This document shows positions 16,342 to 60,738 of a DNA stretch of 64,000 nt, in pieces. The DNA comes from a virus: positions 23,651-87,650 of IMG/VR virus record IMGVR_UViG_3300030116_004830; one strand, given 5' to 3'. Each line of letters opens with the position of its first letter. Position 1 is the first letter of the stretch. A program made the translations under genes and the position numbers. The notes beneath the pieces were generated by a model, which saw only the letters and a list, made by a program, of their open reading frames with translations, had not been told where the DNA came from and searched no databases.

Positions 16342-18585
16342 CTAGAACCTCACATTAGTAGACGAAGAGGTAGTTCTATTTATTTCGGTGCTAACCATTC
16401 TACCTATCTTCTTTGCAATATCTCTTAACTCACTATCAGACGCACCTAATCTTCCATTGACGTTAACACTGATATTATTTGTAACGCTCCCTCCCATCAT
16501 TGACTTAGTGGTATCGTTTGAATGAATTCTTGTTCCTCTTGGAAGATTAATTAATTCGGGACCTCTTTCACCAACCATCGACATTCCTCCTTTACTAATC
16601 CCTCCCATATGGAAAGGATTGAAAGCATCCTTTAATTTTGCAAATTCTCCTGTAATAAAATTAATAATCTTATCAATGAATTCTCCTCCCTTAGTTAATA
16701 ACATTGGAAAGAAATCATTCTGAACATATTTAGCAAATGATGATATTGCTCCTGCCACTGTGTCCGTCCAAAACTTCACTGAAAGTATTTTTTTAACTCC
16801 TGCTATTACACCCATTATAACAGTAACATATGTTTTAATTACAAACGCAACATACGCAATCGCTAATCTAATTACTAATTTTACTGCTCCTTTAAGGACG
16901 CTCCATAATATCTTGTATAATCCTTTATACAAACCTAATATTCCTTGGAAAAGTTTAGTGAATCTTTCCTTTAGTGTTCCTCCACCAAAGAATGCTTCAA
17001 AGATTAGAATGGCCCCACCAAACATATCTTTAATTCCATCAAATACTCCTCTTAGAGCATCCATCAAAGTTTCCATTACTTGCGCTTTTTCAAATATCTT
17101 TTTGATAACAACAAAGGCGAGTAATGCTCCTACTAAGAACATGATAAAATACATTGAATAGAGCATAGCCATCTTCATTACTTTACCTATAATTGAAAAA
17201 ATAGGAGTAATCTTTTTCATTAAAACTGCTCTAGCGCCGCCCTGTTTTTTAACATACGCCTGTCCTTCTGAAATTTTCTTTCTTAATCCCTCAAAGCGTT
17301 TACCTTCAGGCCCTTTCTTGCTATCTTCCTTAAGAAATTTGAATCCTTTTGAAATATTCTCAAATCCTAAACCAAAGGTCATGAATCTCTCAGTGCCTTT
17401 TCCTATGAATTTTAAAACTTTAATTCTCATTTCATGATGTTTCTTTGCGTCATCGGCTCTTTGTTGTAATGCGGCCCTTAGTTGGCCCATACTGCCTTCA
17501 TCTATTCCCTTATCACCCAATCTTCTTACACGACTACTTGCTATCCTCTGCCCTCGTTCCGCTTTCTGTCGTTTCTCAATTAATTTAGCCATAGGACCTG
17601 TTATCGCTTTACCCGTTTTAGAATCTATTCCTTTCTTAAGTTCATCTTCCGAATAAGTTGTAGTTAATTTACCCATTTCTTCCTTTATCTTTTCTAATTT
17701 CTTATCGGCTTTTATTTTCTTTTGAATTGCCGTTTCATATCTTGTTAGGTCTTCATTGGTAAACTTTGTTTTTCTTAAGAAACTCTTATTTCTTAATCTC
17801 TCTTCTCTTTCTAAGGCTTTCTGTAAGGCTTTACCCTCGGCTTTTAGATTGTCTTTTAATTGTTCATGGGTGGCTTCATATGCGTTTAATGTCCTTGCTA
17901 ATGCTAATTGTTTTGCCTTTTCTATTTTCTTAAGAGCCTGTTCCTCGGTATCTCTAGCATCTTCCGTTGCCGCCTTTAGAGCCTCAAAGGTATTTTTGTA
18001 TTCTAAATTAGATTCAATTAATTTTTTGTGGTTATTTGCCTCTCCCATTAATTTTAATTGTTTTTCTACCTGTTCTATATTGTTAGTCAATTCGCCCATA
18101 GCAAGTGCTTGCTCATTAGCGGCCTTAGTTGCTTCTTCGGTTCTACTCTGAAAACCATCCATAACTTGTCCTACGGCTCTAACATAATTTTGCAATTTCC
18201 ATAAAGGACTACCTGATAATATGCGACTAAACATAGTCCATTTTTTACCATAACCATCTACGTTATTAGCGGCCTTAGCAAACTTTCTAGTGAAACTTTC
18301 TGTTGTTGCATTAACTGTTTCTTGGGCCTTTACCAAAGAATATAACTCCGCAGTAGATTTTTTGGTTTCTTCAGTGCCATCACTTACTGCTTCGTTGTTA
18401 GCCCTTTGTGCAACTACTCCCTTCTCTAAAGCCTGTAACATTTTTTTGTTGTTATTGATTAAATGTCCCATTGCTTTATGAGTTTTCATTGTGCTTTTAG
18501 TCATAGATTCTAACATCTTTACGACTGGCTCAATATTTTTAGCAAGAGGGGCTAACTGCGAATTTATATCAGCCAATGAACTCAT
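16342..18585 (-). CDS. Tape measure protein
   Basis: Long helical protein with hydrophobic stretches. C-terminal FHMGG...VGERGPELINLPRG motif is typical of TMPs. Follows the chaperone genes. Confidence 0.85.
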   Translation of the reverse strand: MSSLADINSQLAPLAKNIEPVVKMLESMTKSTMKTHKAMGHLINNNKKMLQALEKGVVAQRANNEAVSDGTEETKKSTAELYSLVKAQETVNATTESFTRKFAKAANNVDGYGKKWTMFSRILSGSPLWKLQNYVRAVGQVMDGFQSRTEEATKAANEQALAMGELTNNIEQVEKQLKLMGEANNHKKLIESNLEYKNTFEALKAATEDARDTEEQALKKIEKAKQLALARTLNAYEATHEQLKDNLKAEGKALQKALEREERLRNKSFLRKTKFTNEDLTRYETAIQKKIKADKKLEKIKEEMGKLTTTYSEDELKKGIDSKTGKAITGPMAKLIEKRQKAERGQRIASSRVRRLGDKGIDEGSMGQLRAALQQRADDAKKHHEMRIKVLKFIGKGTERFMTFGLGFENISKGFKFLKEDSKKGPEGKRFEGLRKKISEGQAYVKKQGGARAVLMKKITPIFSIIGKVMKMAMLYSMYFIMFLVGALLAFVVIKKIFEKAQVMETLMDALRGVFDGIKDMFGGAILIFEAFFGGGTLKERFTKLFQGILGLYKGLYKILWSVLKGAVKLVIRLAIAYVAFVIKTYVTVIMGVIAGVKKILSVKFWTDTVAGAISSFAKYVQNDFFPMLLTKGGEFIDKIINFITGEFAKLKDAFNPFHMGGISKGGMSMVGERGPELINLPRGTRIHSNDTTKSMMGGSVTNNISVNVNGRLGASDSELRDIAKKIGRMVSTEINRTTSSSTNVRF

Positions 18586-47298: not shown

Positions 47299-49562
47299 TA
47301 TTCCACCGCCCGTATTAATCCTTCATTCTCCAAAGTTTTCAAAAAATTCCTTTTTGATTTGGCTCCTCTCTGTTGCTGATAAGTCAGCGACTCTGAAACT
47401 ATCTTTTCTAACTTGTCCCTAATGTCTTGAGTAATCTCTTGTCTTAATTTAGGGATTATATCTTTAGTAATCTTTGCTATTTTTTTAATCTCGTTAGCAA
47501 ATGGCGACTCCATAAAATCCAAATCTTCACTTGGTTGGATTTCCTTGGTTAACCCATCTAACGCTTCTTGCTCACTAGGAATATATATTCTACCTGCTCC
47601 AATAATTACATTGTATAAATTATCTAAAGATTCAATTTTAGTTTTTATTACCTCCCCACCTAAAACATCATCTAAACCCTTACCAGCCGCTAGCCCCTTG
47701 TAGGCTATCTCAGCAATATCTTCTTCATGTCCATCAGAAAACTTACTTTCATCGAAATCTACTTCAAACACCTTTCCGTAATTTGTTTCTAAGGCCCTAT
47801 CTAATTGTTCAAATTGCGTATCAAAATCGCCTTTAACAGATTCTAATCCTGCCTTTAGAGAACTACCTGCTGGTTCTAAATCTATTAAGAAAAATAGATT
47901 CATGATTTTATCATAGGTAGATTGGCTAGCCACAACATAAGCATAAACCGTTTCATCTCCATATTGAATCTTTTTTTCTCTTATACCTAAATCATCCATT
48001 TTTTGAAGATTACTAATTATACTCATAATTTTCTTTTGATTATCAGATTGTTTATCTTCATTTGTAGGTATATCTTTTAGAAGTTCTTCAGCCTCTTCAT
48101 CTCCTGATACTAAGTCAGCAATGAACTCATCTTGAGATTCAGTAAGCGATTTTCTTATCATCTGTAAATTTTGTTCTAGTTGTTTTTTAGATGCTTCATA
48201 AGCATCTCTTAGTGAACCTCTACCCTTGAGAGCATTTACAATATCATTTTTGTATTTATCAAAATTAGGATTATCATCTTCTTTGATTCTATTCTCTATT
48301 ATCTCTGAATAAAAGTCGTTATTTATATCTCCTTTAGAAGAAGCATTATAGACACTCCGAGCATAATAATTTAAACGATATTTTTCGTTAGCAAATTTCA
48401 TTGTTTGCATATTGAGAATAAAATTATCCGCCATACTTCCATCTTCTATCATGGATTCATATTTTCCGTCTAAAATTTTCAATAGGCTTCTATGAATAAA
48501 ACCGCTTCTTTCTTTAATTGCGTTTAATTTGTTTGTAGAAAGTTTCTCGTATTCTTTTTCACTCATTACCTTTTCAAGAAAGTAATGTGCCTTTGCAGAA
48601 GTAAACGGTTCTACCAATTCATATTCTTTGAAAATCATACCTTTAGTATCATCTTTTGAATATTCTACCATATCTAATTTACCAAATAATGCGTAAACGG
48701 GTCTAGGTTTATTCTCAATTTTTTGGGGTCCTATAATTTCCTTTACCTTTCTTTTAAGTTCGTTTACATCTCCCTCATATGAAGGGATAATTTGGTGCGG
48801 TCCTTTTTTTTCAAAACCTAATTGGGATAAATCTTCTTCGGTCTTAACAGAAATTCTTTGTTGCCTATTCCAGCCCCATTGATTCAATAGAGGTATTATC
48901 TTTCTACCATACGTTTGAGTAAAATATGGTTTTAGTTTGTCGATTTTAGTTTTATCTTTAAGTAACAATCTATCTAATTTCGCCAAATATCTTTTCTGTT
49001 GATTTTCATCCCAAGTATCAAAATTTTCTTGTAGAACCGCATCAATTTTTTCTTTGGTAACATCTTGCATTTCTACATTGATACGGGCTAATCCTGATGC
49101 AGTTCCCCTTGCTTTAGCCTGTCCTTTCTTTCTACCCTCTAAGAACGGCAACAATTCATTAACGACTTTCGTAACCCTAGCGGTTATCTTAGGTCCCTTT
49201 ATTCTATTAGGTCCTGTTGTTAATTTTCTAATCTCACTTATGTTTCTCCATCCCTTGAAATCATCTTGTTGATAAAATCTTAATCGGTCAATGGTAGCGT
49301 CTAATCCTTCGGGCTGATATTTTCTTTTTACTTCACTTATGAACATATCAGTATCTTCATCGCTAGAAAAAACTTCAGCCCAGTAAGTATTGGTTTGTTC
49401 TTCATTGAATCTTCTAAAATGAGGTAATCTAATTTTACCGTCTTGGTCGTATCTGTTGTATTGAGCCTTAATAACTTCCAAACTAGCATACACATGGTCA
49501 TTGTCTTTCAAAACCCTATTGGATTTCTTAAGAGATAATATCCATGCGGGTTCTTGACTCAT
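47298..49562 (-). CDS. Large helical protein (754 aa), probable internal virion protein
   Basis: N-terminal WILSLKK tag variant. Confidence 0.55.
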   Translation of the reverse strand: MSQEPAWILSLKKSNRVLKDNDHVYASLEVIKAQYNRYDQDGKIRLPHFRRFNEEQTNTYWAEVFSSDEDTDMFISEVKRKYQPEGLDATIDRLRFYQQDDFKGWRNISEIRKLTTGPNRIKGPKITARVTKVVNELLPFLEGRKKGQAKARGTASGLARINVEMQDVTKEKIDAVLQENFDTWDENQQKRYLAKLDRLLLKDKTKIDKLKPYFTQTYGRKIIPLLNQWGWNRQQRISVKTEEDLSQLGFEKKGPHQIIPSYEGDVNELKRKVKEIIGPQKIENKPRPVYALFGKLDMVEYSKDDTKGMIFKEYELVEPFTSAKAHYFLEKVMSEKEYEKLSTNKLNAIKERSGFIHRSLLKILDGKYESMIEDGSMADNFILNMQTMKFANEKYRLNYYARSVYNASSKGDINNDFYSEIIENRIKEDDNPNFDKYKNDIVNALKGRGSLRDAYEASKKQLEQNLQMIRKSLTESQDEFIADLVSGDEEAEELLKDIPTNEDKQSDNQKKIMSIISNLQKMDDLGIREKKIQYGDETVYAYVVASQSTYDKIMNLFFLIDLEPAGSSLKAGLESVKGDFDTQFEQLDRALETNYGKVFEVDFDESKFSDGHEEDIAEIAYKGLAAGKGLDDVLGGEVIKTKIESLDNLYNVIIGAGRIYIPSEQEALDGLTKEIQPSEDLDFMESPFANEIKKIAKITKDIIPKLRQEITQDIRDKLEKIVSESLTYQQQRGAKSKRNFLKTLENEGLIRAVE

Positions 49563-50221
49563 TGTAATTGCTCCTGCATCTTACTCTTAATGTCCAACCA
49601 AACTTGAGGATGCTGTTGTGCTAATACCTCTTGAACGACTTGCATTTGATGAACGATAATTGTATCTTGTCTTTTGTGAACCAACTGTCCCTTGAACTCC
49701 AACATATACTTCAATGATTCACGAATCTCTTTTGCTAGTTTCGTCAAACTATCAATATATTTTGGATTGAGGTCATCCTCTTGAAACAACAATTCAATCT
49801 TTTCTTCAAGACGATGAATATTTACCGACAACAAATCAATTTCATTCAAATCTCTTTTCATGATTTCCATTGCCGCAGATTGTTGAACTAGCGGCTTCAA
49901 GTGTTTATTCATGTGTTTCATGACTTGTTGACGACTAATTCCTAAATCCGCCGCAACGGTTGAAGGTGAAATCTCTCCTTCATGGATAGCCATCTCTAGA
50001 GTTTTTCTTTCAGGACTAACGCATAACGCACATTTAGGATTTGATTGGTCGGTATAATCTGTATCCATGTGGTTTCTCAAATGTCTGGCAGTAACTCCAC
50101 TAGTCCATCCCATTTCTTCATCAAGTTCATCAGGAGTAATTTGTTTTGAAGAAAGCCTTTCCTCTAATTGGTCCCTATCGGGATGTTGGCAGAGTTTACA
50201 GTGCTTTCTTGTTTTAGCCAT
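49559..50221 (-). CDS. Probable terminase small subunit
   Basis: Two tandem CxxC-HTH-HxxxH repeats plus a C-terminal coiled coil; upstream of terL. Confidence 0.55.
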   Translation of the reverse strand: MAKTRKHCKLCQHPDRDQLEERLSSKQITPDELDEEMGWTSGVTARHLRNHMDTDYTDQSNPKCALCVSPERKTLEMAIHEGEISPSTVAADLGISRQQVMKHMNKHLKPLVQQSAAMEIMKRDLNEIDLLSVNIHRLEEKIELLFQEDDLNPKYIDSLTKLAKEIRESLKYMLEFKGQLVHKRQDTIIVHQMQVVQEVLAQQHPQVWLDIKSKMQEQLQ

Positions 50222-51799: not shown

Positions 51800-52654
51800 T
51801 TAAACGGCTAAACTAATTTCTCTATTTAATTTATTCATCCAATCAGTAACATACCATAAATCGTCTAACTCAACACCAGTTTCGTAATTCCTATTATGTA
51901 AATAATTAACCAATTGATTGGTTGAAAGGTTCCTTCCGCTTTCAGGAATAAAGGGACATCCACCAAGACCAGCAATACTCGCATCAAACTTGGTTATTCC
52001 CCAATCTAAAGCCGCTTCCACATTAGCAAAAATGTCCGTATCTCCATTTTTTCTCTCATGAAGGTGTAAAGTTACATCCGAATCTAATTTTCTAGTCAAT
52101 TCTAAGGTTTGAAGCAACTTTGTAGGAAAAGCAGACCCAATTGTATCACAAAGGACTATCTCATTAGCGATTTCACTTGCCATTTCAAAGGATTTAATCA
52201 ATTTATAGTCAGAAATGCCTCCTGTGAGTGGACAACCAAAGGCACAAGAGACATATGCACGAACATTTTCTCTTTTTTCTTCTTCTAACATCGTTTTTAT
52301 CTCAGGAAACGCTTCATCTAGTGTTCTTCCCAAATTTATTCGATTAAATTCGTCCGAAGGAGAAAAATATACGTTAAATCTCGATACTCCAACCGCTTTT
52401 GCCCTATCATATCCCTTTTGATTCGGCACTAGCGCCGCAAAATTAGCCAAATTGCGAGTTTCGCTAAACACACTTTCCGCATCAGCCATATGAGGGACCA
52501 TTTTGGGATGGACAAATGATGCAACTTCAATATCTTCTAGTCCACCATGATATAATTCGTTTATCATCCTAACTTTTTCATTTGTATCTAAAACAAACTT
52601 GCTATTTTGTAAACCATCTCTAGGTCCCACTTCATATATCTCAATATCTCTCAT
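51800..52654 (-). CDS. hmgL: Hydroxymethylglutaryl-CoA lyase (DRE-TIM family)
   Basis: EVGPRDGLQN, SFVHPK.VP.MAD, LxDTIG, HxH metal ligands, GLGGCPF catalytic Cys, GxNLST. Confidence 0.9.
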   Translation of the reverse strand: MRDIEIYEVGPRDGLQNSKFVLDTNEKVRMINELYHGGLEDIEVASFVHPKMVPHMADAESVFSETRNLANFAALVPNQKGYDRAKAVGVSRFNVYFSPSDEFNRINLGRTLDEAFPEIKTMLEEEKRENVRAYVSCAFGCPLTGGISDYKLIKSFEMASEIANEIVLCDTIGSAFPTKLLQTLELTRKLDSDVTLHLHERKNGDTDIFANVEAALDWGITKFDASIAGLGGCPFIPESGRNLSTNQLVNYLHNRNYETGVELDDLWYVTDWMNKLNREISLAV

Positions 52655-52881
52655 CTTCTAACCCCATTACTAGCGATAATTCACCTAGTAATATATCCAA
52701 TTTAAACATGCCCCTAATTTCTCATCCTTCCTCAACCATTTACCTTTCAGCGATAAATGACGATGGGCTAGATTAGTGGGTGATATATCTCCCACCTAAC
52801 TTTTTCAAAAAATGACCCGTAATTTGTGTGGGACTAGCAAAAATTTTTTGGGGCTTATCGTCTATTTCCAGCCAAATGCCT

Positions 52882-53127
52882 TTAATCCTCTAAAATCATT
52901 TTTGTTATATCTTCTAAGGTCAATCGTTCTTTTATATCGCTACTCGATTTAGTAGCAAAATCATCTAAGGAACTCTGAGTGGTCTTCTTCCTTGTAGCAT
53001 CTAGCAATTGCTTTAGCAATCCGTCAGCCTGTTTTAGTGCTTTATTGGCAATGTCCGTCTGAATTCTTGCTTCCGACATTAGTTTATTGATTTCTCTTAC
53101 GGCCTGAAATACTTCTTCATCCTCCAT
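52882..53127 (-). CDS. Hypothetical coiled-coil protein
   Basis: ORF with GGAGG RBS. Confidence 0.6.
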   Translation of the reverse strand: MEDEEVFQAVREINKLMSEARIQTDIANKALKQADGLLKQLLDATRKKTTQSSLDDFATKSSSDIKERLTLEDITKMILED

Positions 53128-53308
53128 AGAAACCCTCCACTAAACCAAGCCTAGCGCCATTTAACTAATAGAGATATGGTCTAATCATTAAATTATAACA
53201 GTGTAAGGCTTATCATTAAATGACGTTCAAATAAAAATTTTTTTCACAAAGCCATATGGTTGGAGGCTTTGCTATCCAACCTTATGAGTATTAAAAATAC
53301 CATCTGAT

Positions 53309-53455
53309 ATGAGTGATGAAAAGTTGGACCCGTTTCACGATGATTATGAAATCGTAATGACCAAAAAGGAACTATACCATTTAGAGATATTGCGGGCAAT
53401 GGGGCTTAACTTTGAAATGCTTAAGATAATGGGACCAGAAGGTGAGGAGGAATGA
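53309..53455 (+). CDS. Cassette 1, leaderless 48-aa ORF (MSDEKLDPFHDD...)
   Basis: Below the track cutoff; follows the cassette promoter; stop overlaps the next ATG. Confidence 0.6.
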   Translation: MSDEKLDPFHDDYEIVMTKKELYHLEILRAMGLNFEMLKIMGPEGEEE

Positions 53456-53712
53456 GAGCAGACGAGATAGCGGATTGGTGTGGCTTTGACGATGAATGGG
53501 ATATGTTAACCGACAATTTAGATGATGATGAATTGATGGACCTATTGCGGGTATTCGTTTATTCTGATAAGGAAGGCTTAATTCAAGAGATGATAGAGGA
53601 TTGGGCAAAATATCAATACGATTGGGTAGACCATGAAAAGATAAAGGCAGATTACGAGGATATGAAATATCAAGAGTGGAAAGATAGTAGAGGTGAAAGA
53701 GATGAAAGATAA
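53452..53712 (+). CDS. Cassette 1, acidic hypothetical protein
   Basis: ORF track; RBS present. Confidence 0.65.
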   Translation: MRADEIADWCGFDDEWDMLTDNLDDDELMDLLRVFVYSDKEGLIQEMIEDWAKYQYDWVDHEKIKADYEDMKYQEWKDSRGERDER

Positions 53713-53956
53713 AGAGATTAAGATACGATGTGGTAAGAATAGTTTTGTGCATCCTAGTTATATCGACTATTGTATGACTACTAGTAAAGTGGATTGGAAT
53801 GAAGATGCTCAAACAGAAGCAATAAGGATTTGGCAGTTATGCTTCTTGTTTCCTAACCTTGAAGCAGGAGTCCTTATTGATTTAGTTAAGGGCAAAAGAA
53901 AATACAGTTACGATGATGAAACGATTTATATTCATGTAGAAGAGGAGGAAGAGTGA
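53702..53956 (+). CDS. Cassette 1, hypothetical protein
   Basis: GAGGTGA RBS before ATG 53702. Confidence 0.65.
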   Translation: MKDKEIKIRCGKNSFVHPSYIDYCMTTSKVDWNEDAQTEAIRIWQLCFLFPNLEAGVLIDLVKGKRKYSYDDETIYIHVEEEEE

Positions 53957-54036
53957 TGTGTGGAGCAATACCCGTTCAGTGTGAAGATTGTGGGCGCTGG
54001 TATAGGATAGGCAGTTGCCAATGGTGTAAAGAATAA
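53956..54036 (+). CDS. Cassette 1, 26-aa zinc-finger microprotein (MCGAIPVQCEDCGRWYRIGSCQWCKE)
   Basis: TGATG coupling, GGAGG RBS, CxxCG...CxxC. Confidence 0.5.
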   Translation: MCGAIPVQCEDCGRWYRIGSCQWCKE

Positions 54037-54038
54037 AT

Positions 54039-54048
54039 CCCTTCGGGG
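54039..54048 (+). terminator. CCC-TTCG-GGG hairpin ending cassette 1 (same type at 54411-54422, 57943-57954 and minus-strand 56776-56787)
   Basis: UUCG-capped hairpins at the 3' end of four cassettes. Confidence 0.55.
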
Positions 54049-54123
54049 TAGTAGACAAAAGCACTACCATATGGTAATGACTTTGTAAATTACCTTAACA
54101 TAGTTTATCCGCTAACTACTATT

Positions 54124-54405
54124 GTCGAGGTGACGGCCTCGGCAGGGAATGACCGAATAGAGCCTGTGCTGGGCGCTAAGGTATTCTCCTTCGTGTGGTG
54201 CGACACTGCCTTATCAGCATGGCCTAATGGTTAGATGGGTAAGTAGTAGTGAAAAGTCCTTAATCCTCAAAAGGGGAGTTGCCTAACTAACAACTTGGAC
54301 AGGAGAAGTAGTCATGCTAAACCAATCGAATGGATTGAAACGGCGCAAAACGAGAGAGGCGGAATCCTCTCATGACTTGAAGGTAGCCAGTCCTTCTTCC
54401 CACCT
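54124..54405 (+). ncRNA. Cassette 2, putative ~280-nt structured RNA
   Basis: Promoter and terminal hairpin but no ORF; GC-richer than the genome; many stems (GAGAGG/CCTCTC, GAAGG/CCTTC, AGTCATG/CATGACT, AGTTG/CAACT, TGCTG/CAGCA). Confidence 0.65.
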
Positions 54406-54514
54406 TTATTTCCCTTCGGGGATTTAAGGTTCTTCATCTCAAAGTTAGAACCATATGGTGAGGTAACTTTGAGGTAACACGAACCTCATATAGAATACGG
54501 ATTAACTACTATTG

Positions 54515-54730
54515 ATGTGGCAAGAACGTAAAGAATGGAGACAGTGGCATACGGTTGATTTTCCTGTAACAATTGGAAATGTTGAATATAATTCAATTAG
54601 ACCGTTAATGAAGATGGTTAGGGAGAGATACCCTTGGAGAGAGTGGAAAGTTATCAAGCATTATTACTACGGGGCATTTTGGGAGATTAAGTATTCTACA
54701 GATGCACATATGAGACAGGAGTGGGGTTAA
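54515..54730 (+). CDS. Cassette 3, leaderless W/R-rich protein
   Basis: ATG immediately after CTACTATTG. Confidence 0.6.
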   Translation: MWQERKEWRQWHTVDFPVTIGNVEYNSIRPLMKMVRERYPWREWKVIKHYYYGAFWEIKYSTDAHMRQEWG

Positions 54731-54865
54731 ATGAAAGCAAGAGATTTATTGAGAATGACGGTTAAAGAAGTGAAAGAAATCGAGCAACAACTATGGAAAG
54801 AATGGGAAATCGCAAATAAAGTGCTTAAGGTGCTGACGGAAATTGAGAAGGAGGAAGAAGAATGA
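54731..54865 (+). CDS. Cassette 3, 44-aa coiled-coil ORF (MKARDLLRMTVKEV...)
   Basis: Below the track cutoff; coupled to both neighbours. Confidence 0.6.
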   Translation: MKARDLLRMTVKEVKEIEQQLWKEWEIANKVLKVLTEIEKEEEE

Positions 54866-55044
54866 GCAAAATGGCAAAATGGATTAGTGAAAACTGGAAG
54901 TCGATTTGGGGACATGGAACTTATCTATGTGCTAAAGATGGTAGAGAGGCAGAAAGTGGCTTTTATGTCGTAGTGCCTTTAGACATGATTGTTGAGGAAT
55001 TGGGAGTTAGTAGGAATTACCTGATGTATGGAGAGGATGAATAA
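54862..55044 (+). CDS. Cassette 3, hypothetical protein
   Basis: ORF track. Confidence 0.6.
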   Translation: MSKMAKWISENWKSIWGHGTYLCAKDGREAESGFYVVVPLDMIVEELGVSRNYLMYGEDE

Positions 55045-55205
55045 TGTTTCAAAGACGACATATGATAGTTATAGCAGAGATACTGAAAGAACAAGGAGCA
55101 ACATATCAAAATATCAACAGATGGGCTGATATGCTTGGTCATTACAACCACAATTTTGACCGTGAGAAGTTCTTCAAGGCTTGTGGGAAGGAAGATTCGG
55201 GGTAA
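55044..55205 (+). CDS. Cassette 3, 53-aa ORF (MFQRRHMIVIAEIL...NFDREKFFKACG)
   Basis: TAATG coupling; FDxxxFxxAC motif recalled from small phage proteins. Confidence 0.65.
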   Translation: MFQRRHMIVIAEILKEQGATYQNINRWADMLGHYNHNFDREKFFKACGKEDSG

Positions 55206-55441
55206 CGCCCGTTTCTCTCCTTATTCTCAAAGTTAGTCGCTACACTTGTTGCGTTACCATATGGTCTTGAAATATGTGCAGATATAGGAACACTTCGATA
55301 GATTAATCTCAAAACTCTAGCATGTTTTACTACCAATCTGAGATTATTTCCTAAGTTGCCGCAGTAAACAGCAAATCGAAGATTTTTCATTACCATATGG
55401 TATTGGGCTTTGTAATCAATACCTCAAGAGTAAAAATTTCA

Positions 55442-55512
55442 GACCCCACCATCACATCCGCTAAGATGCTGAAACCAATAGGGTGCTACCCGTATTTCTA
55501 GATGGTGGGGTC
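55442..55512. ncRNA. Three-way-junction element closed by a 12-bp perfect stem
   Basis: GACCCCACCATC...GATGGTGGGGTC enclosing CATC/GATG and GGGT/ACCC hairpins. Confidence 0.45.
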
Positions 55513-55545
55513 CTAAAGCCAATACTTTTCATTTCTTCACCTCAA

Positions 55546-55743
55546 CTACTCTTGTTGAAGTATGCGAAAGTCCTGTAATGCTAATTGTAAGTCAGCGATG
55601 CACGTTGTTAGTTCATCACCACTTACACGAAGTTTCTTGATAATCAATTCATTGTTTCGATTATGTCCAACTTCGATAACGAAGCGTTGCTCTTGGTTCG
55701 CAGTAAATTCCTCAATTGTATTCTTTTTGTTAAACCACTTCAT
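55546..55743 (-). CDS. Cassette 4, hypothetical protein (MKWFNKK...)
   Basis: GGAGTGA RBS. Confidence 0.6.
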   Translation of the reverse strand: MKWFNKKNTIEEFTANQEQRFVIEVGHNRNNELIIKKLRVSGDELTTCIADLQLALQDFRILQQE

Positions 55744-55759
55744 CTCAATCACTCCTTTG

Positions 55760-56004
55760 AATTAGGCCGAACCATTGCCCGACATTGGCCAATTAGGGCA
55801 GAGAACTTACGTATCTACAAGTCGGAGGGACATTCTCAAATATTACTTGGTCTGTTTAGGTTGCACCCTGCCCTTCCTAGGAAAAAACAGGCCCTAATGA
55901 GTCGTTCATAATGATAAACATGTGTCGCACTTAGGTTTCGATTCTCAGGTTCTATTACCAAGCAAATCCACAGTCACCCGAAGGCCGTTTTTTCACTTGG
56001 TCGT
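55760..56004 (-). ncRNA. Cassette 4, ~245-nt structured leader / ncRNA
   Basis: Begins right after the cassette promoter; has stems; shares colinear motifs with the cassette 2 RNA. Confidence 0.5.
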
Positions 56005-56164
56005 GATAGTAGAAATGATTGGATGTATATTAAGGTAAGAATACAAAGCCCTTACCATATGGTTGTTTAACTTTGGGAATTTAACAACCCTGCTAAAAGT
56101 CGCCTCCCCCACTTAGGAATAGAAGGTGGGGGGAGGCATTGGGTGGAAACCTTCGCTTTAACAT

Positions 56165-56416
56165 TTAATTTGTGAATCTGTTAAAGGTCTTTAATTCGGC
56201 TATTGTTGCTTTAGCCAAATCTCCTCTCCAACCTTCAAGGTTAGAAAGGACGTAAGGGATTTGATGTTCTAATCCCTCATCACCATAAACAACATATGCT
56301 TCTATTGAAGAAGCGGCATAGGTCTTCGCATATTCGGCATATTCACCCGAAGCGTGTGCTATAACCGTAGCCATTAGTTCAAAAATTCGGTCTACTTGTT
56401 CTCTTGTGTAATTCAT
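56165..56416 (-). CDS. Cassette 5, hypothetical protein (MNYTREQV...YVLSNLEGWRG)
   Basis: TAATG coupling to the upstream ORF. Confidence 0.65.
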   Translation of the reverse strand: MNYTREQVDRIFELMATVIAHASGEYAEYAKTYAASSIEAYVVYGDEGLEHQIPYVLSNLEGWRGDLAKATIAELKTFNRFTN

Positions 56417-56529
56417 TAATATTCCCTCCTGCATTGGTCAGCATCCTTACCCTTACAATTTTTGATTGCCTTCAAAAGGTCTATTTCCTCTTCTGTTAGG
56501 TATTTCTTTCTCAAGTCACTCCGCTTCAT
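56416..56529 (-). CDS. Cassette 5, leaderless 37-aa ORF (MKRSDLRKKYL...)
   Basis: ATG immediately after CTACTATC. Confidence 0.55.
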   Translation of the reverse strand: MKRSDLRKKYLTEEEIDLLKAIKNCKGKDADQCRREY

Positions 56530-56822
56530 GATAGTAGAGATAGTTTTCTTAACATAAGGTTCCTTCTACTCAAAGTTAGTCACCATATGGTTTGGTGAAA
56601 AATGTGGCTTTTCCTGAAGCGAGAGTATTTGAATCGACAATTATGAAAATAATCTCAAATGAGTAGCAATGTGCTAGAGATTTCAGATTACAACATTCTC
56701 TACAGAATTTGAGCCTATTTGCGGACAAATTTCATTACCATATGGTAGCGCTTTGTATATCTACCCTACAAGAAATGCCCGAAGGCAAATCTTGTTGGGG
56801 TGCAGGCCAAGAACGATTAGGC

Positions 56823-57362
56823 TCAGACCTCAGCCTCCTCGACTTCAGGAACAACAAGGTTTGGCGAACCATCCTTGCTTAGAGTTCCGTCCCACTGAAT
56901 TGCTTCAGAGTTTTTGTCGGTGTAGTTCTTGTAGTATCCCGTAAGGCGTGTTTTCAAGTTTGCAACTTGAGCCTTAGCATAGGACTCTGCATCTGCGTAA
57001 GGTGTGTATCCTGCAACACCTCTTGCACGAAGCACCTCACCATAAAGGGGGTGACTCGCAAAAAGAACAGAATGTCCTTCTGCATATACCGCACAAATCG
57101 CTTCCATAGAGTCCTGAACTGCTTGGGGGAGTGAACTTCTCTTACCAATGATAATTGGGGAGTTATCCACAGTTGCAAACATATTGGTGATGTTGTTCCA
57201 ATATCGCTTACGGTATTCGGGCTTATCAGTTCCCATTTTTAAGTTCCAACGCAAAGGTGCTTCCATGTCTCCTACATCGTTATTCTTGATGTGGGATTCA
57301 ATCAATTCAACCCGTGCGGTCCATTTGTCGTCATCCATTGTATAATCTGCCATACTTTTCAT
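56823..57362 (-). CDS. Cassette 6, hypothetical protein (179 aa)
   Basis: AGGAG RBS; own promoter and UUCG hairpin. Confidence 0.7.
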   Translation of the reverse strand: MKSMADYTMDDDKWTARVELIESHIKNNDVGDMEAPLRWNLKMGTDKPEYRKRYWNNITNMFATVDNSPIIIGKRSSLPQAVQDSMEAICAVYAEGHSVLFASHPLYGEVLRARGVAGYTPYADAESYAKAQVANLKTRLTGYYKNYTDKNSEAIQWDGTLSKDGSPNLVVPEVEEAEV

Positions 57363-57597
57363 CTCCTGTTAAATCAATCCGATTCAATCATTCTTGACCT
57401 GCAATAGTGGAATGAATTGAAACTATTTGTATGGTTCCGAGCAAAGCCGAACCATATGGTTGGTATGAAATTAAACCTCAAATCAGGTGTTCATAAGATA
57501 TGACTCGATACATCTCGCAATATCATATTTCATACCATATGGTAACACAACTTTGAGAATTATGTTACCTTATGTAAAATAATATATTCTTACTATC

Positions 57598-57864
57598 ATG
57601 ATTGATTGGAGCGAAGCAGTTGAAGATTATAAGACACAATACACAGACGAAGACGGAATTCATGAATACGTTGATTCATTGGTCCCTATTTATTACGGGG
57701 ACATTACTCAAACCTTTATGGATTTACGAGGTCCGTCTATATCTTGTAAAATACATGAGGCTCATGTTGGTATGCCTGTATGGAGATTCATGCAGGAGGT
57801 CATTTATGAGGAATACATGGGTGAGTTTATGGCTCACTGGACAGGATTTGACGAAGAAGAATGA
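57598..57864 (+). CDS. Cassette 7, leaderless acidic protein
   Basis: ATG immediately after TTACTATC. Confidence 0.7.
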   Translation: MIDWSEAVEDYKTQYTDEDGIHEYVDSLVPIYYGDITQTFMDLRGPSISCKIHEAHVGMPVWRFMQEVIYEEYMGEFMAHWTGFDEEE

Positions 57865-58324
57865 GAAACTGGGGAGTGTTTTGAATGTTTACACAGGTAA
57901 GGGAGCCTCGGCAGATATGCCAAATAGCCGAACCAAACATTCACCCTTCGGGGTCATTATTCTCAAAGTTAAGACCATATGGTAACGGAAAAAACAGATA
58001 AACTGCAAATTGATTTTTCTTAAAGTTAAGTTTTCACTGCCGCCCTTTTCATAGCCCCATTTATATACTTTCCAAGAAGGCCGCTACCGAGAATGATTCA
58101 ACATTCATTCTTAGATTATCTCGCATGGAGATTGACCTCTTCAGTGCGACTAATACCTAACCTCAATATATCAACGCAGTATAACAGGGTAGTCAATCTT
58201 ACCACCCATTTTCGTATGGGTTTTATTGGGTTACATTCAATTGGTATATACAGTATAATATATTGTATAGGTATCAGGTATTTAGTAAATAATATTTGAT
58301 TTGATAATATCGGATTTCCTTTAT

Positions 58325-59124: not shown

Positions 59125-59143
59125 TATAGAGGAGATGAAAATT

Positions 59144-59731
59144 ATGAATATATTTGTTTTAGACGAAAATCCAAAAACATCAGCAAGAATGATGATAGAC
59201 AAACATGTGGTAAAAATGCCTACAGAAAGTATGCAAATGATTTCCACAATTACTAATCACTTAGGATTCGATTCACCATACAAACCTGTTATGTTGAATC
59301 ATCCTTCTACTATTTGGGCGAGAGAATCCCAAGATAACTTTCAATGGTTGTTAGACCATTGCGAAGCATTGTGCGAAGAGTTCAATCTTCGATACGATAA
59401 TACGCATAGTGTTGAATTAACATTGAGAGATAATTATGATACGTTCATGAAAGTAAAGAGTCACTTACCTAATATTGGTTTGACTCCATTTGCAATAGCA
59501 ATTAGTCCTAACATGAACTGTAGAAAACTTCCAAACTTTGAGGCTTTAAATACAGTCGAGAAATACCAACAGTATTACTTAGAAGACAAGTGGAAGTTTG
59601 CGAGTTGGAAATTGGGCAAACCATCATGGTGGCCTGACGACCATATACAAACAAAAAACCAAGAATGGAATGATTGGTTAGAATCAGAAAATGAAAGAAT
59701 AAGGAGAGTTAATAATGAGTTCACACATTAA
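59144..59731 (+). CDS. Pyrimidine-dimer DNA glycosylase-like (DenV / Pyr_excise family) protein
   Basis: MNIFVLD...DKHVVKMPTESMQM...YKP...NHPSTIW. Confidence 0.75.
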   Translation: MNIFVLDENPKTSARMMIDKHVVKMPTESMQMISTITNHLGFDSPYKPVMLNHPSTIWARESQDNFQWLLDHCEALCEEFNLRYDNTHSVELTLRDNYDTFMKVKSHLPNIGLTPFAIAISPNMNCRKLPNFEALNTVEKYQQYYLEDKWKFASWKLGKPSWWPDDHIQTKNQEWNDWLESENERIRRVNNEFTH

Positions 59732-60630: not shown

Positions 60631-60640
60631 CCATACAATT

Positions 60641-60712
60641 GGGCGTATGGTGTAATGGATAGCATTTTGGCCTTCTAAGCCGAAGATAGGGGTTCGATTC
60701 CTCTTACGCCCG
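60641..60712 (+). tRNA. tRNA-Arg(TCT), no encoded CCA, no intron
   Basis: Acceptor GGGCGTA/TACGCCC, anticodon arm TTGGC-CTTCTAA-GCCGA, T arm GGTTCGATTCC. AGA is visibly the common Arg codon in this genome. Confidence 0.93.
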
Positions 60713-60738
60713 TATGGTAATAATAAAGAGATGATAAT

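Follow-up and report, generated by a model that had tools for sequence, protein, structure and literature searches.

The stretch of DNA that was analysed, here called the window, comprises 64,000 nucleotides (nt) of the IMG/VR virus record IMGVR_UViG_3300030116_004830, corresponding to bases 23651-87650 of a record of 87,650 bp that is rated 96% complete. The subject of this study is an array of small gene cassettes within the window that are joined to one another by a short palindrome, hereafter referred to as the core. The virus carries tailed-virus head genes (major capsid protein, prohead protease and portal), an archaeal-type replication set (thermosome-like chaperonin, ATP-dependent ligase, RFC and split PolB) and genes for two kinds of nuclease, one Cas4-like and one of the ERCC4/XPF type with helix-hairpin-helix (HhH) motifs. 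The public sequencing runs that hold it are marine metagenomes. Both the gene set and the marine source match the magroviruses of marine group II archaea (PMC5434244), and the genome is that of a magrovirus-type tailed virus of these archaea. A preliminary description of the window, made from its letters alone, had already spoken of an archaeal tailed virus, and the head module and the archaeal-type replication genes bear this out. In the GenBank phage collection, blastn found nothing similar to the array.

The palindrome CCATATGG occurs 12 times in the window, as compared to 0.92 copies expected and a maximum of 4 in 100 shuffles. 11 of the 12 copies are clustered at 53252-57982; ten of these read ACCATATGGT, and core 1 reads GCCATATGGT. 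The number, the wording and the place of the cores are therefore as previously described. The accompanying statement that no core is present elsewhere in the window was slightly wrong, as an isolated copy at 16605 reads CCCATATGGA; this copy is solitary and unrelated to the array. No further ACCATATGGT was found outside the array in the whole 87,650-bp record. The cores are flanked by arms of two types, A with CTTTG and B with TGAAA, and we refer to a core with its arms as a joint. The typing of the arms, the coordinates of the ten segments between the cores and their division into seven A...A and three B...B segments proved correct when the sequence was read again, apart from two details: the left arm at the core at 54067 is CAAAAG instead of CAAAG, and in core 1 CAAAG directly abuts the palindrome (CAAAGCCATATGG), with a TGAAA-like stretch further out. 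Likewise, the outer ends of the array had both been called B-like, and the right arm past 57982 is so only weakly.

The array begins with a platform boundary joint at 53215-53260, in which an A/T-rich stretch and the abutting CAAAG precede core 1 (53251-53260). Cassette 1 (53261-54065, + strand) starts with CTTTG, the promoter box ACCTTA and a TATA-like stretch, encodes open reading frames (ORFs) at 53309-53455, 53452-53712 and 53693-53956 plus a tiny CxxC ORF, and ends with a CCCTTCGGGG hairpin; its ORF of 86 amino acids (aa) is also present in the closest relative. At core 2 (54066-54075, ACCATATGGT) the 3' end of this cassette meets the promoter of cassette 2 (54076-54449, + strand), which has no ORF and consists of its own promoter, a manA-type RNA at 54126-54406 and a UUCG hairpin. 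Core 3 (54450-54459, a match to the motif) leads to cassette 3 (54460-55255, + strand), with a promoter, a CTACTAT initiator and ORFs at 54512-54730, 54731-54865, 54862-55044 and 55044-55205. Core 4 (55256-55265) is an A/B joint at a 3' end, and it is followed by B module 1 (55266-55391), an ORF-less segment with inverted TGAAA-type arms, and by core 5 (55392-55401), a B/A joint at a 3' end.

The next three cassettes are on the - strand. Cassette 4 (55402-56053) has its promoter at about 56048, a leader of about 260 nt, a 68-aa ORF at 55546-55752 and a long terminator hairpin. Contigs from RNA libraries map to it at 55528-55677 and 55850-55969, and its ORF family is found in both orientations among relatives. 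Beyond core 6 (56054-56063, again a match to the motif) lies cassette 5 (56064-56581), with a promoter at about 56575 and ORFs at 56416-56529 and 56165-56434. Core 7 (56582-56591, A/B) and core 8 (56737-56746, B/A at a 3' end) enclose B module 2 (56592-56736), which is an inverted homologue of B module 1; the latter and the reverse complement of the former share 73% identity (z=13.5). Cassette 6 (56747-57450) encodes an all-helical protein of 179 aa at 56823-57362. Core 9 (57451-57460, A/B) and core 10 (57534-57543, B/A) delimit B module 3 (57461-57533), a 75-bp segment, and cassette 7 (57544-57973, + strand) carries a promoter, an 88-aa ORF at 57598-57864 and a CCCTTCGGGG hairpin. The family of cassette 7 occurs at another place and inverted in the relative L129. 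Core 11 (57974-57983) forms the right end of the array, and the stretch adjoining it is conserved in close relatives. Altogether, the three B modules measure 75-147 bp and are devoid of ORFs. None of the small cargo proteins of this array, including those of cassettes 1 and 3, could be assigned to a Pfam family.

The orientations +,+,+,-,-,-,+ that had been proposed for the A segments are consistent with the ORFs, the promoter boxes and the 3' hairpins, and the view that the A segments are complete transcription units holds for all seven, each of which has its own promoter and 3' hairpin. The same anatomy was observed in related arrays. On the promoter side, reading inward from the core, a unit shows T, 4-10 nt, CTTTG, 3-13 nt, an (A)CC[CT][TCA]A box and a TATA-like stretch. 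The distance from the box to the ATG of the first long ORF peaks at 20-29 nt (45% of 180 units), which points to archaeal-type promoters with leaderless mRNAs. At the other end, the final 70 nt before the downstream core fold with a mean of -17.2 kcal/mol, as compared to -7.4 kcal/mol for internal stretches, and 57% of them fall below -15 kcal/mol versus 5% of internal stretches, often with G/C stems and UUCG loops. Each unit is thus autonomous and consists of an arm, an archaeal TATA-type promoter, 1-4 small ORFs or an RNA, a 3' hairpin and a second arm. A bacterial sigma-70 or Bacteroidetes promoter and a crAss/N4-like virion RNA polymerase were also considered, and both were dropped in view of the archaeal gene set and the leaderless TATA geometry.

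With respect to cargo, the RNA of cassette 2 was identified as Rfam RF01745 (manA) with 62.5 bits against a gathering threshold of 55.2 (E=1.4e-14; model positions 1-192 of 192). The manA motif is known from marine bacteria and cyanophages, where it is presumed to be a cis-regulator. In the present array it is free-standing inside an archaeal virus, with a promoter and a hairpin of its own. With 126 members distributed over 122 loci, the protein family of cassette 6 is the commonest array cargo. Next in frequency is a family that matches the Pfam family Kyano_Gp96 of T4-like cyanophages (E=1e-17), and the matching genes are L010:5633-6043 (- strand) and 27 other in-array genes of related loci. 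Judged by these sequence matches, manA and Kyano_Gp96 suggest an accessory gene pool that would be common to marine archaeal and bacterial viruses.

To delineate the distribution of the joint, the pattern CAAAG-N2-8-ACCATATGGT-N2-8-CTTTG was searched. In IMG/VR it is present in more than 120 stretches among the matches listed, many of which have 3-7 joints on contigs of 25-100 kb. In 596 Gb of prokaryote genomes only 34 stretches were found, 33 of them with a single site, and we estimate that the cellular matches are at about chance level. The sole cellular match with multiple sites is NZ_NZTP01000027.1 (L157), a 14.7-kb contig with five joints and a magrovirus platform end in a metagenome-assembled genome (MAG) of 'Altibacter sp.', which is probably a viral contig that was misbinned into a bacterial MAG. 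Relatives with a visible array have a single array of 4-5 kb per genome with 5-13 cores. In arm contexts the core is perfect in 359 cases and has one mismatch in 6, and the arms and the cargo diverge freely. The idea of a lineage with a different core was abandoned, as the two relatives with 0-1 cores are records that are broken at the array or lack it and are uninformative.

The array is polar, in that it has one fixed end, namely the joint in which CAAAG abuts the core after an A/T-rich stretch. Each array has one such platform-type end joint (AAATAAAAAATTT-N-CAAAGCCATATGG), which in 46 of 48 cases forms the outer end and faces outward. Read leftward, that is outward, it resembles in its letters the promoter arm of the fixed neighbouring leftward operon. 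The array is located where leftward and rightward gene blocks diverge, at the minimum of the cumulative GC skew, and A/T-rich stretches flank it. Such a position could be expected if the palindromes were replication origin iterons bound by an initiator, or a packaging signal bound by the terminase. However, the skew turns at the point where the genes change direction, the sites extend over 4-5 kb with one per unit border and variable cargo in between, and their number and spacing vary freely among close relatives. We therefore regard an origin or packaging function as very improbable.

The relation of the joint to transcription was assessed with 295 units, deduplicated and clearly oriented. 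Of the promoter-side arms 93% contain CTTTG, as do 87% of the terminator-side arms; among the joints 108 are tandem, 22 convergent (3'-3') and 22 divergent (promoter to promoter). The box follows CTTTG in 40% of the terminator-side arms, as compared to 5.5% after CTTTG elsewhere, and CTTTG lies at a variable distance of 4 to 10 nt from the core. Since 3'-3' borders have two-armed joints and CTTTG is similarly frequent at both ends, the core and the arms are not parts of the promoter, which shows that they are boundary elements. We also considered CTTTG in a hairpin loop as the defining feature of an arm and rejected it, because hairpins are present in a minority of arms: stems directly around CTTTG have a mean of 0.74 pairs versus 0.45 in controls, complementary runs of at least 5 around the arms number 152 versus about 68 expected, and 28% of the arms, versus 23% of the flank-shuffled control, fold into hairpins whose loop contains TTT.

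A boundary element might serve regulation only. The palindrome would then bind an operator, insulator or roadblock-terminator factor, and breakpoints would coincide with it because rearrangements that cut a unit are lost. This would suit the presence of a core upstream of nearly every promoter, including that of the fixed leftward operon at the platform, and the bidirectional sites at both unit ends are what a boundary or terminator factor could use. Less easily accommodated is the finding that the arms are alike within a unit. The preliminary description had reported that arms pair within a segment rather than across a core, and this is true both here and family-wide. Arms inside a segment have a mean best match of 6.07/10, as compared to 5.50 for arms on the two sides of a core and 5.36 when pairs are random, and matches of at least 8/10 make up 19%, 8% and 7%, respectively (Mann-Whitney P=4e-9, calculated on sequences that are related to one another). 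These observations support the view that the unit is the segment carrying its own inverted arms.

The most direct evidence on the role of the core comes from comparisons of the array with that of its closest relative (G001; complete form G006), in which the flanks are collinear and 75-87% identical. Three differences were observed. Cassette 2 is absent from the relative, including both arms and one core; cassette 6 is inverted, with an alignment that extends from core to core including both arms and is lost right outside; and the 75-bp B module 3 is absent. Every break falls inside a core. In an independent 2021 metagenome, contigs connect 57450 with 57534 and share the 10 core letters at the junction, so that B module 3 is absent there too, and several contigs from public metagenome runs part from the window at a core or within about 13 nt of one. 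A contig joint at 55243/57985 ('opposite strands', side 31) and stretches without cover were not used as evidence. No circle junction was seen in these data, which are assembled contigs of public runs.

In six oriented arrays the flanking genes are collinear, and the cargo families differ in place and direction. Order swaps with breaks at cores were found between L056 and L131, where the identity steps from about 72% to about 95% exactly at a core, and between L089 and L110. Family-wide, adjacent gene-family pairs keep their order and orientation in 68% of the comparisons when they belong to the same unit and in 25% across a core (0.77 versus 0.38 as means over unique pairs). In 22 of 51 comparisons, cassettes of 90-99% identity stand next to a non-homologous neighbour. 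Moreover, 7 of 16 arrays in relatives' records are cut by the contig end, which hints at a structural heterogeneity that breaks assemblies. Comparison with relatives, as called for in the preliminary description, thus revealed no fixed synteny among the units: content, order and orientation all vary, and the breakpoints lie at the cores, an outcome that speaks for that description and not for the alternative it had named. Taken together, these findings make it very probable that the palindrome is the crossover point at which whole units with their arms are gained, lost, inverted, reordered and exchanged between lineages. As a separate observation, precisely the 72-aa ORF of cassette 3 is missing from a relative found in an independent metagenome (joint 54512 to 54731, one letter between), which means that single-gene indels at gene borders also take place inside units, away from cores.

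The regulatory explanation introduced above fits these comparisons less well. The breaks are confined to 10-12 common letters and not just to the 100-200 nt of intergenic DNA, and gene-less B modules of 72-166 bp come and go between cores. The contig ends within arrays, which suggest population heterogeneity, are likewise not anticipated by it. The failure to find a recombinase, described below, is in its favour, but on balance we consider a purely regulatory boundary unlikely.

We wanted to know whether the virus encodes an enzyme that might act on the joint. Six-frame searches of the 96%-complete genome gave 0 candidates for a tyrosine recombinase (Phage_integrase, PF00589), with 14 of 14 control genomes positive, and in searches of the same kind with positive controls no candidate was found for a serine recombinase (Resolvase, PF00239) or a Y1 transposase (Y1_Tnp, PF01797). 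The previous remark that no recombinase is visible in the window can accordingly be extended to the whole genome for these three families. Among the flanking and cargo proteins examined with Pfam, which yielded a UvrD-like helicase, DUF932, Kyano_Gp96 and a Pyr_excise-like protein (59135-59731), there was no recombinase or nuclease domain beyond general repair nucleases. The 179-aa protein of cassette 6 was examined as a candidate enzyme and rejected, since its fast-evolving, helical family has no invariant residues and no enzyme-like fold. A search with its AF2 model (pLDDT 87) in Foldseek gave no match in the PDB at E<=0.001, matches in BFVD were magrovirus homologues only, and the generic three-helix matches had Z<=6.7.

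These negative results bear on the proposal, put forward in the preliminary description, of a site-specific system that inserts, inverts or shuffles cassettes at a symmetric core. The changes between relatives do take place at that core, but the six-frame searches give no recombinase to go with them, and recombination over a short homology at a protein-bound boundary would account for them just as well. The early host-interaction role that was ascribed to the cassettes is a guess. In such a dedicated, integron- or shufflon-like system an unrecognised viral or host recombinase or nuclease would bind the arms, cut and rejoin within the core, and give rise to circles and in-place inversions. Indeed, a number of findings would be explained in this way: the near-invariance of the core (359 perfect versus 6 with one mismatch), breaks inside it with arms that move with the unit, arms that are better matched within a unit than across a core, the single fixed platform with its special end joint, the near-identical cassettes with non-homologous neighbours (22/51), and order swaps that keep orientation and hence require excision and reinsertion or multiple inversions. 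However, tyrosine and serine recombinases and a Y1 transposase are absent from a 96%-complete genome, the cargo and flanking proteins examined show neither nuclease nor recombinase domains, and the commonest cargo protein lacks an enzyme-like fold and invariant catalytic residues. In addition, a spacing of 4-10 nt between core and CTTTG is odd for a recombinase arm site. We therefore view a dedicated system as a rather doubtful explanation. It is equally tentative to suppose that a new site-specific rearrangement machine of archaeal viruses acts on the palindrome and its arms, be it an enzyme of no recognised family or a sequence-specific nuclease working together with the viral ligase.

The explanation that we favour, with moderate confidence, is that general viral replication and repair functions carry out recombination within the short identical core of a predicted protein-bound boundary site. 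Most likely, a sequence-specific dimeric protein would bind the near-invariant core and its CTTTG arms and thereby mark the borders of the units. Breakage and rejoining within the 10 identical letters could be performed by the virus's replication and repair machinery, for which the XPF-type and Cas4-like nucleases, the ATP-ligase and the clamp loader are candidates, so that no classical recombinase would be needed. As the core is symmetric, two cores can pair either way: one pairing would delete or insert a unit, as a circle or by exchange between genomes, and the other would invert it. The outcome would be a shuffling like that of the promoter-early stem-loop (PeSL) cassettes discussed below, with a dedicated symmetric joint.

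Several considerations weigh against recombination by general viral functions. The agent of rearrangement is throughout something that we infer, and neither a joint-binding protein nor an enzyme was identified among the proteins examined. Ten identical letters are very short for ordinary homologous recombination. No breakpoints were seen at other array repeats of similar length, for example the CCCTTCGGGG hairpins, and a targeted mechanism therefore fits better than general microhomology. The match of arms within a unit suggests selection on a circular or excised form, which would favour a dedicated system. Furthermore, selection for intact transcription units biases surviving breakpoints to unit borders under any mechanism, and the evidence is all comparative or contig-based, with no event caught happening.

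The surroundings of the array merit a brief description. The platform operon opens, reading outward, with a gene at 52882-53127 (- strand) that has homologues in some 15 related loci and holds this first position in many lineages. Its product is a helical protein of roughly 75-80 aa and contains the motif QxxLxxF (QSSLDDF / QTSLxDF). This motif looks like a PCNA-interacting (PIP) box, and the protein may be a clamp binder or inhibitor and a candidate ligand of the joint. It is adjoined by an HMGL-like (pyruvate carboxyltransferase-type) auxiliary gene at 51800-52654 (- strand). The roughly 80 bp between these two genes (52793-52875) are 77-90% conserved in about 20 otherwise diverged loci, and the summed contig depth of this stretch is raised in metagenomes. 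An HTH protein is encoded at 49559-50221. A tRNA-Arg gene (TCT) is located slightly to the right of the array (60640-60713, + strand), and a thermosome-type chaperonin is present as an auxiliary gene in the replication block (L125:909-2432, + strand). The palindromes AGCT, CCGG, CGCG, GATC and GTAC are entirely missing from the 87,650-bp genome, as compared to 50-330 expected copies each, and ACGT and TCGA are depleted genome-wide; CATATG is not avoided. The missing 4-bp palindromes look like an extreme case of restriction-site avoidance.

Magroviruses are among the most abundant archaeal viruses of the surface ocean, and their hosts are uncultured. If genes and RNAs are packaged as plug-and-play units by a family-wide, near-invariant joint, this would account for the hypervariable region of magrovirus genomes, whose cargo includes the manA-type RNA and a protein family common to cyanophages. 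The motif CAAAG-N-ACCATATGGT-N-CTTTG provides a sequence handle for finding such viruses and their mobile gene pool in metagenomes, and the joint raises the biochemical question of what recognises the palindrome. If an enzyme is involved, it would represent a new recombination system and a possible tool. Should the array indeed be the substrate of a new machine, abundant ocean viruses would be trading promoter-equipped genes in an orientation-free, integron-like way.

Among known systems, integrons resemble the array in having one fixed platform followed by an exchangeable array (here one array per genome, with the end joint placed as described in 46 of 48 cases), borders at a short conserved core with imperfect inverted symmetry, and cargo mostly of unknown function. 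They differ in that they depend on IntI, a tyrosine recombinase, for which the PF00589 search was negative here, and in that their cassettes are promoterless, in a single orientation and dependent on a platform promoter for expression, whereas the units described here have their own promoters, both orientations, arms at both ends and a fully symmetric core. Shufflons and invertible segments (Rci, Hin/Gin/Cin) likewise consist of many segments bounded by short repeats, with inversion and reordering creating variants. However, they rearrange the coding 3' ends of one gene and need an adjacent tyrosine or serine recombinase, whereas here whole autonomous genes move and PF00589 and PF00239 were negative. 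The hairpin-guided elements of the IS200/IS605 type have a Y1 HUH transposase, for which PF01797 was negative here, and CTTTG hairpins are not a general feature of the joints (28% vs 23%). The homologous regions (hrs) of baculoviruses are repeated imperfect palindromes to which a dimeric viral factor binds; they act as enhancers of early promoters and lie at hot spots of rearrangement. Unlike the array, they are clustered tandem repeats dispersed around the genome of a eukaryotic virus, rather than one joint per transcription unit.

The preliminary description knew of no such arrangement in archaeal tailed viruses. In agreement with this, the searchable magrovirus papers are silent on it, with no mention of repeats, promoters or palindromes, and a full-text literature search for the motif letters returned primers only. 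Against it stands the haloarchaeal myovirus HGTV-1, for which a conserved TATA-plus-inverted-repeat motif before ORFs, with a proposed PeSL-like role in regulation and shuffling, is described in a review (PMC3950731). HGTV-1 is likewise an archaeal tailed virus with a repeated motif bordering many small ORFs in one genome arm; its motif has another sequence and belongs to another lineage, and the review text consulted reports neither an invariant palindromic joint nor comparative evidence of shuffling.

PeSL shuffling itself, known from the hyperplastic regions of T4-type phages (Arbiol et al. 2010, PMC2839356; Comeau et al. 2014, PMC4122927), is the closest known system. As in the array, small ORFan units there carry a strong host-type promoter and a terminator-like stem-loop, and motif-bounded indels, replacements and shuffling distinguish close relatives; no dedicated recombinase is known, and circles have been proposed as intermediates. 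In PeSL cassettes, however, the recombining repeat is the sigma-70 promoter and stem-loop itself, which is directional and scattered over several regions. In the virus studied here, what stays invariant is a separate, perfect palindrome of 10 bp that is flanked by inverted arms. It is also found at promoter-less 3'-3' joints, the units lie in both orientations and form one array with a polar platform, and the host is archaeal. If no enzyme takes part, PeSL shuffling would have in this array, with its dedicated symmetric joint, its clearest counterpart among archaeal viruses.

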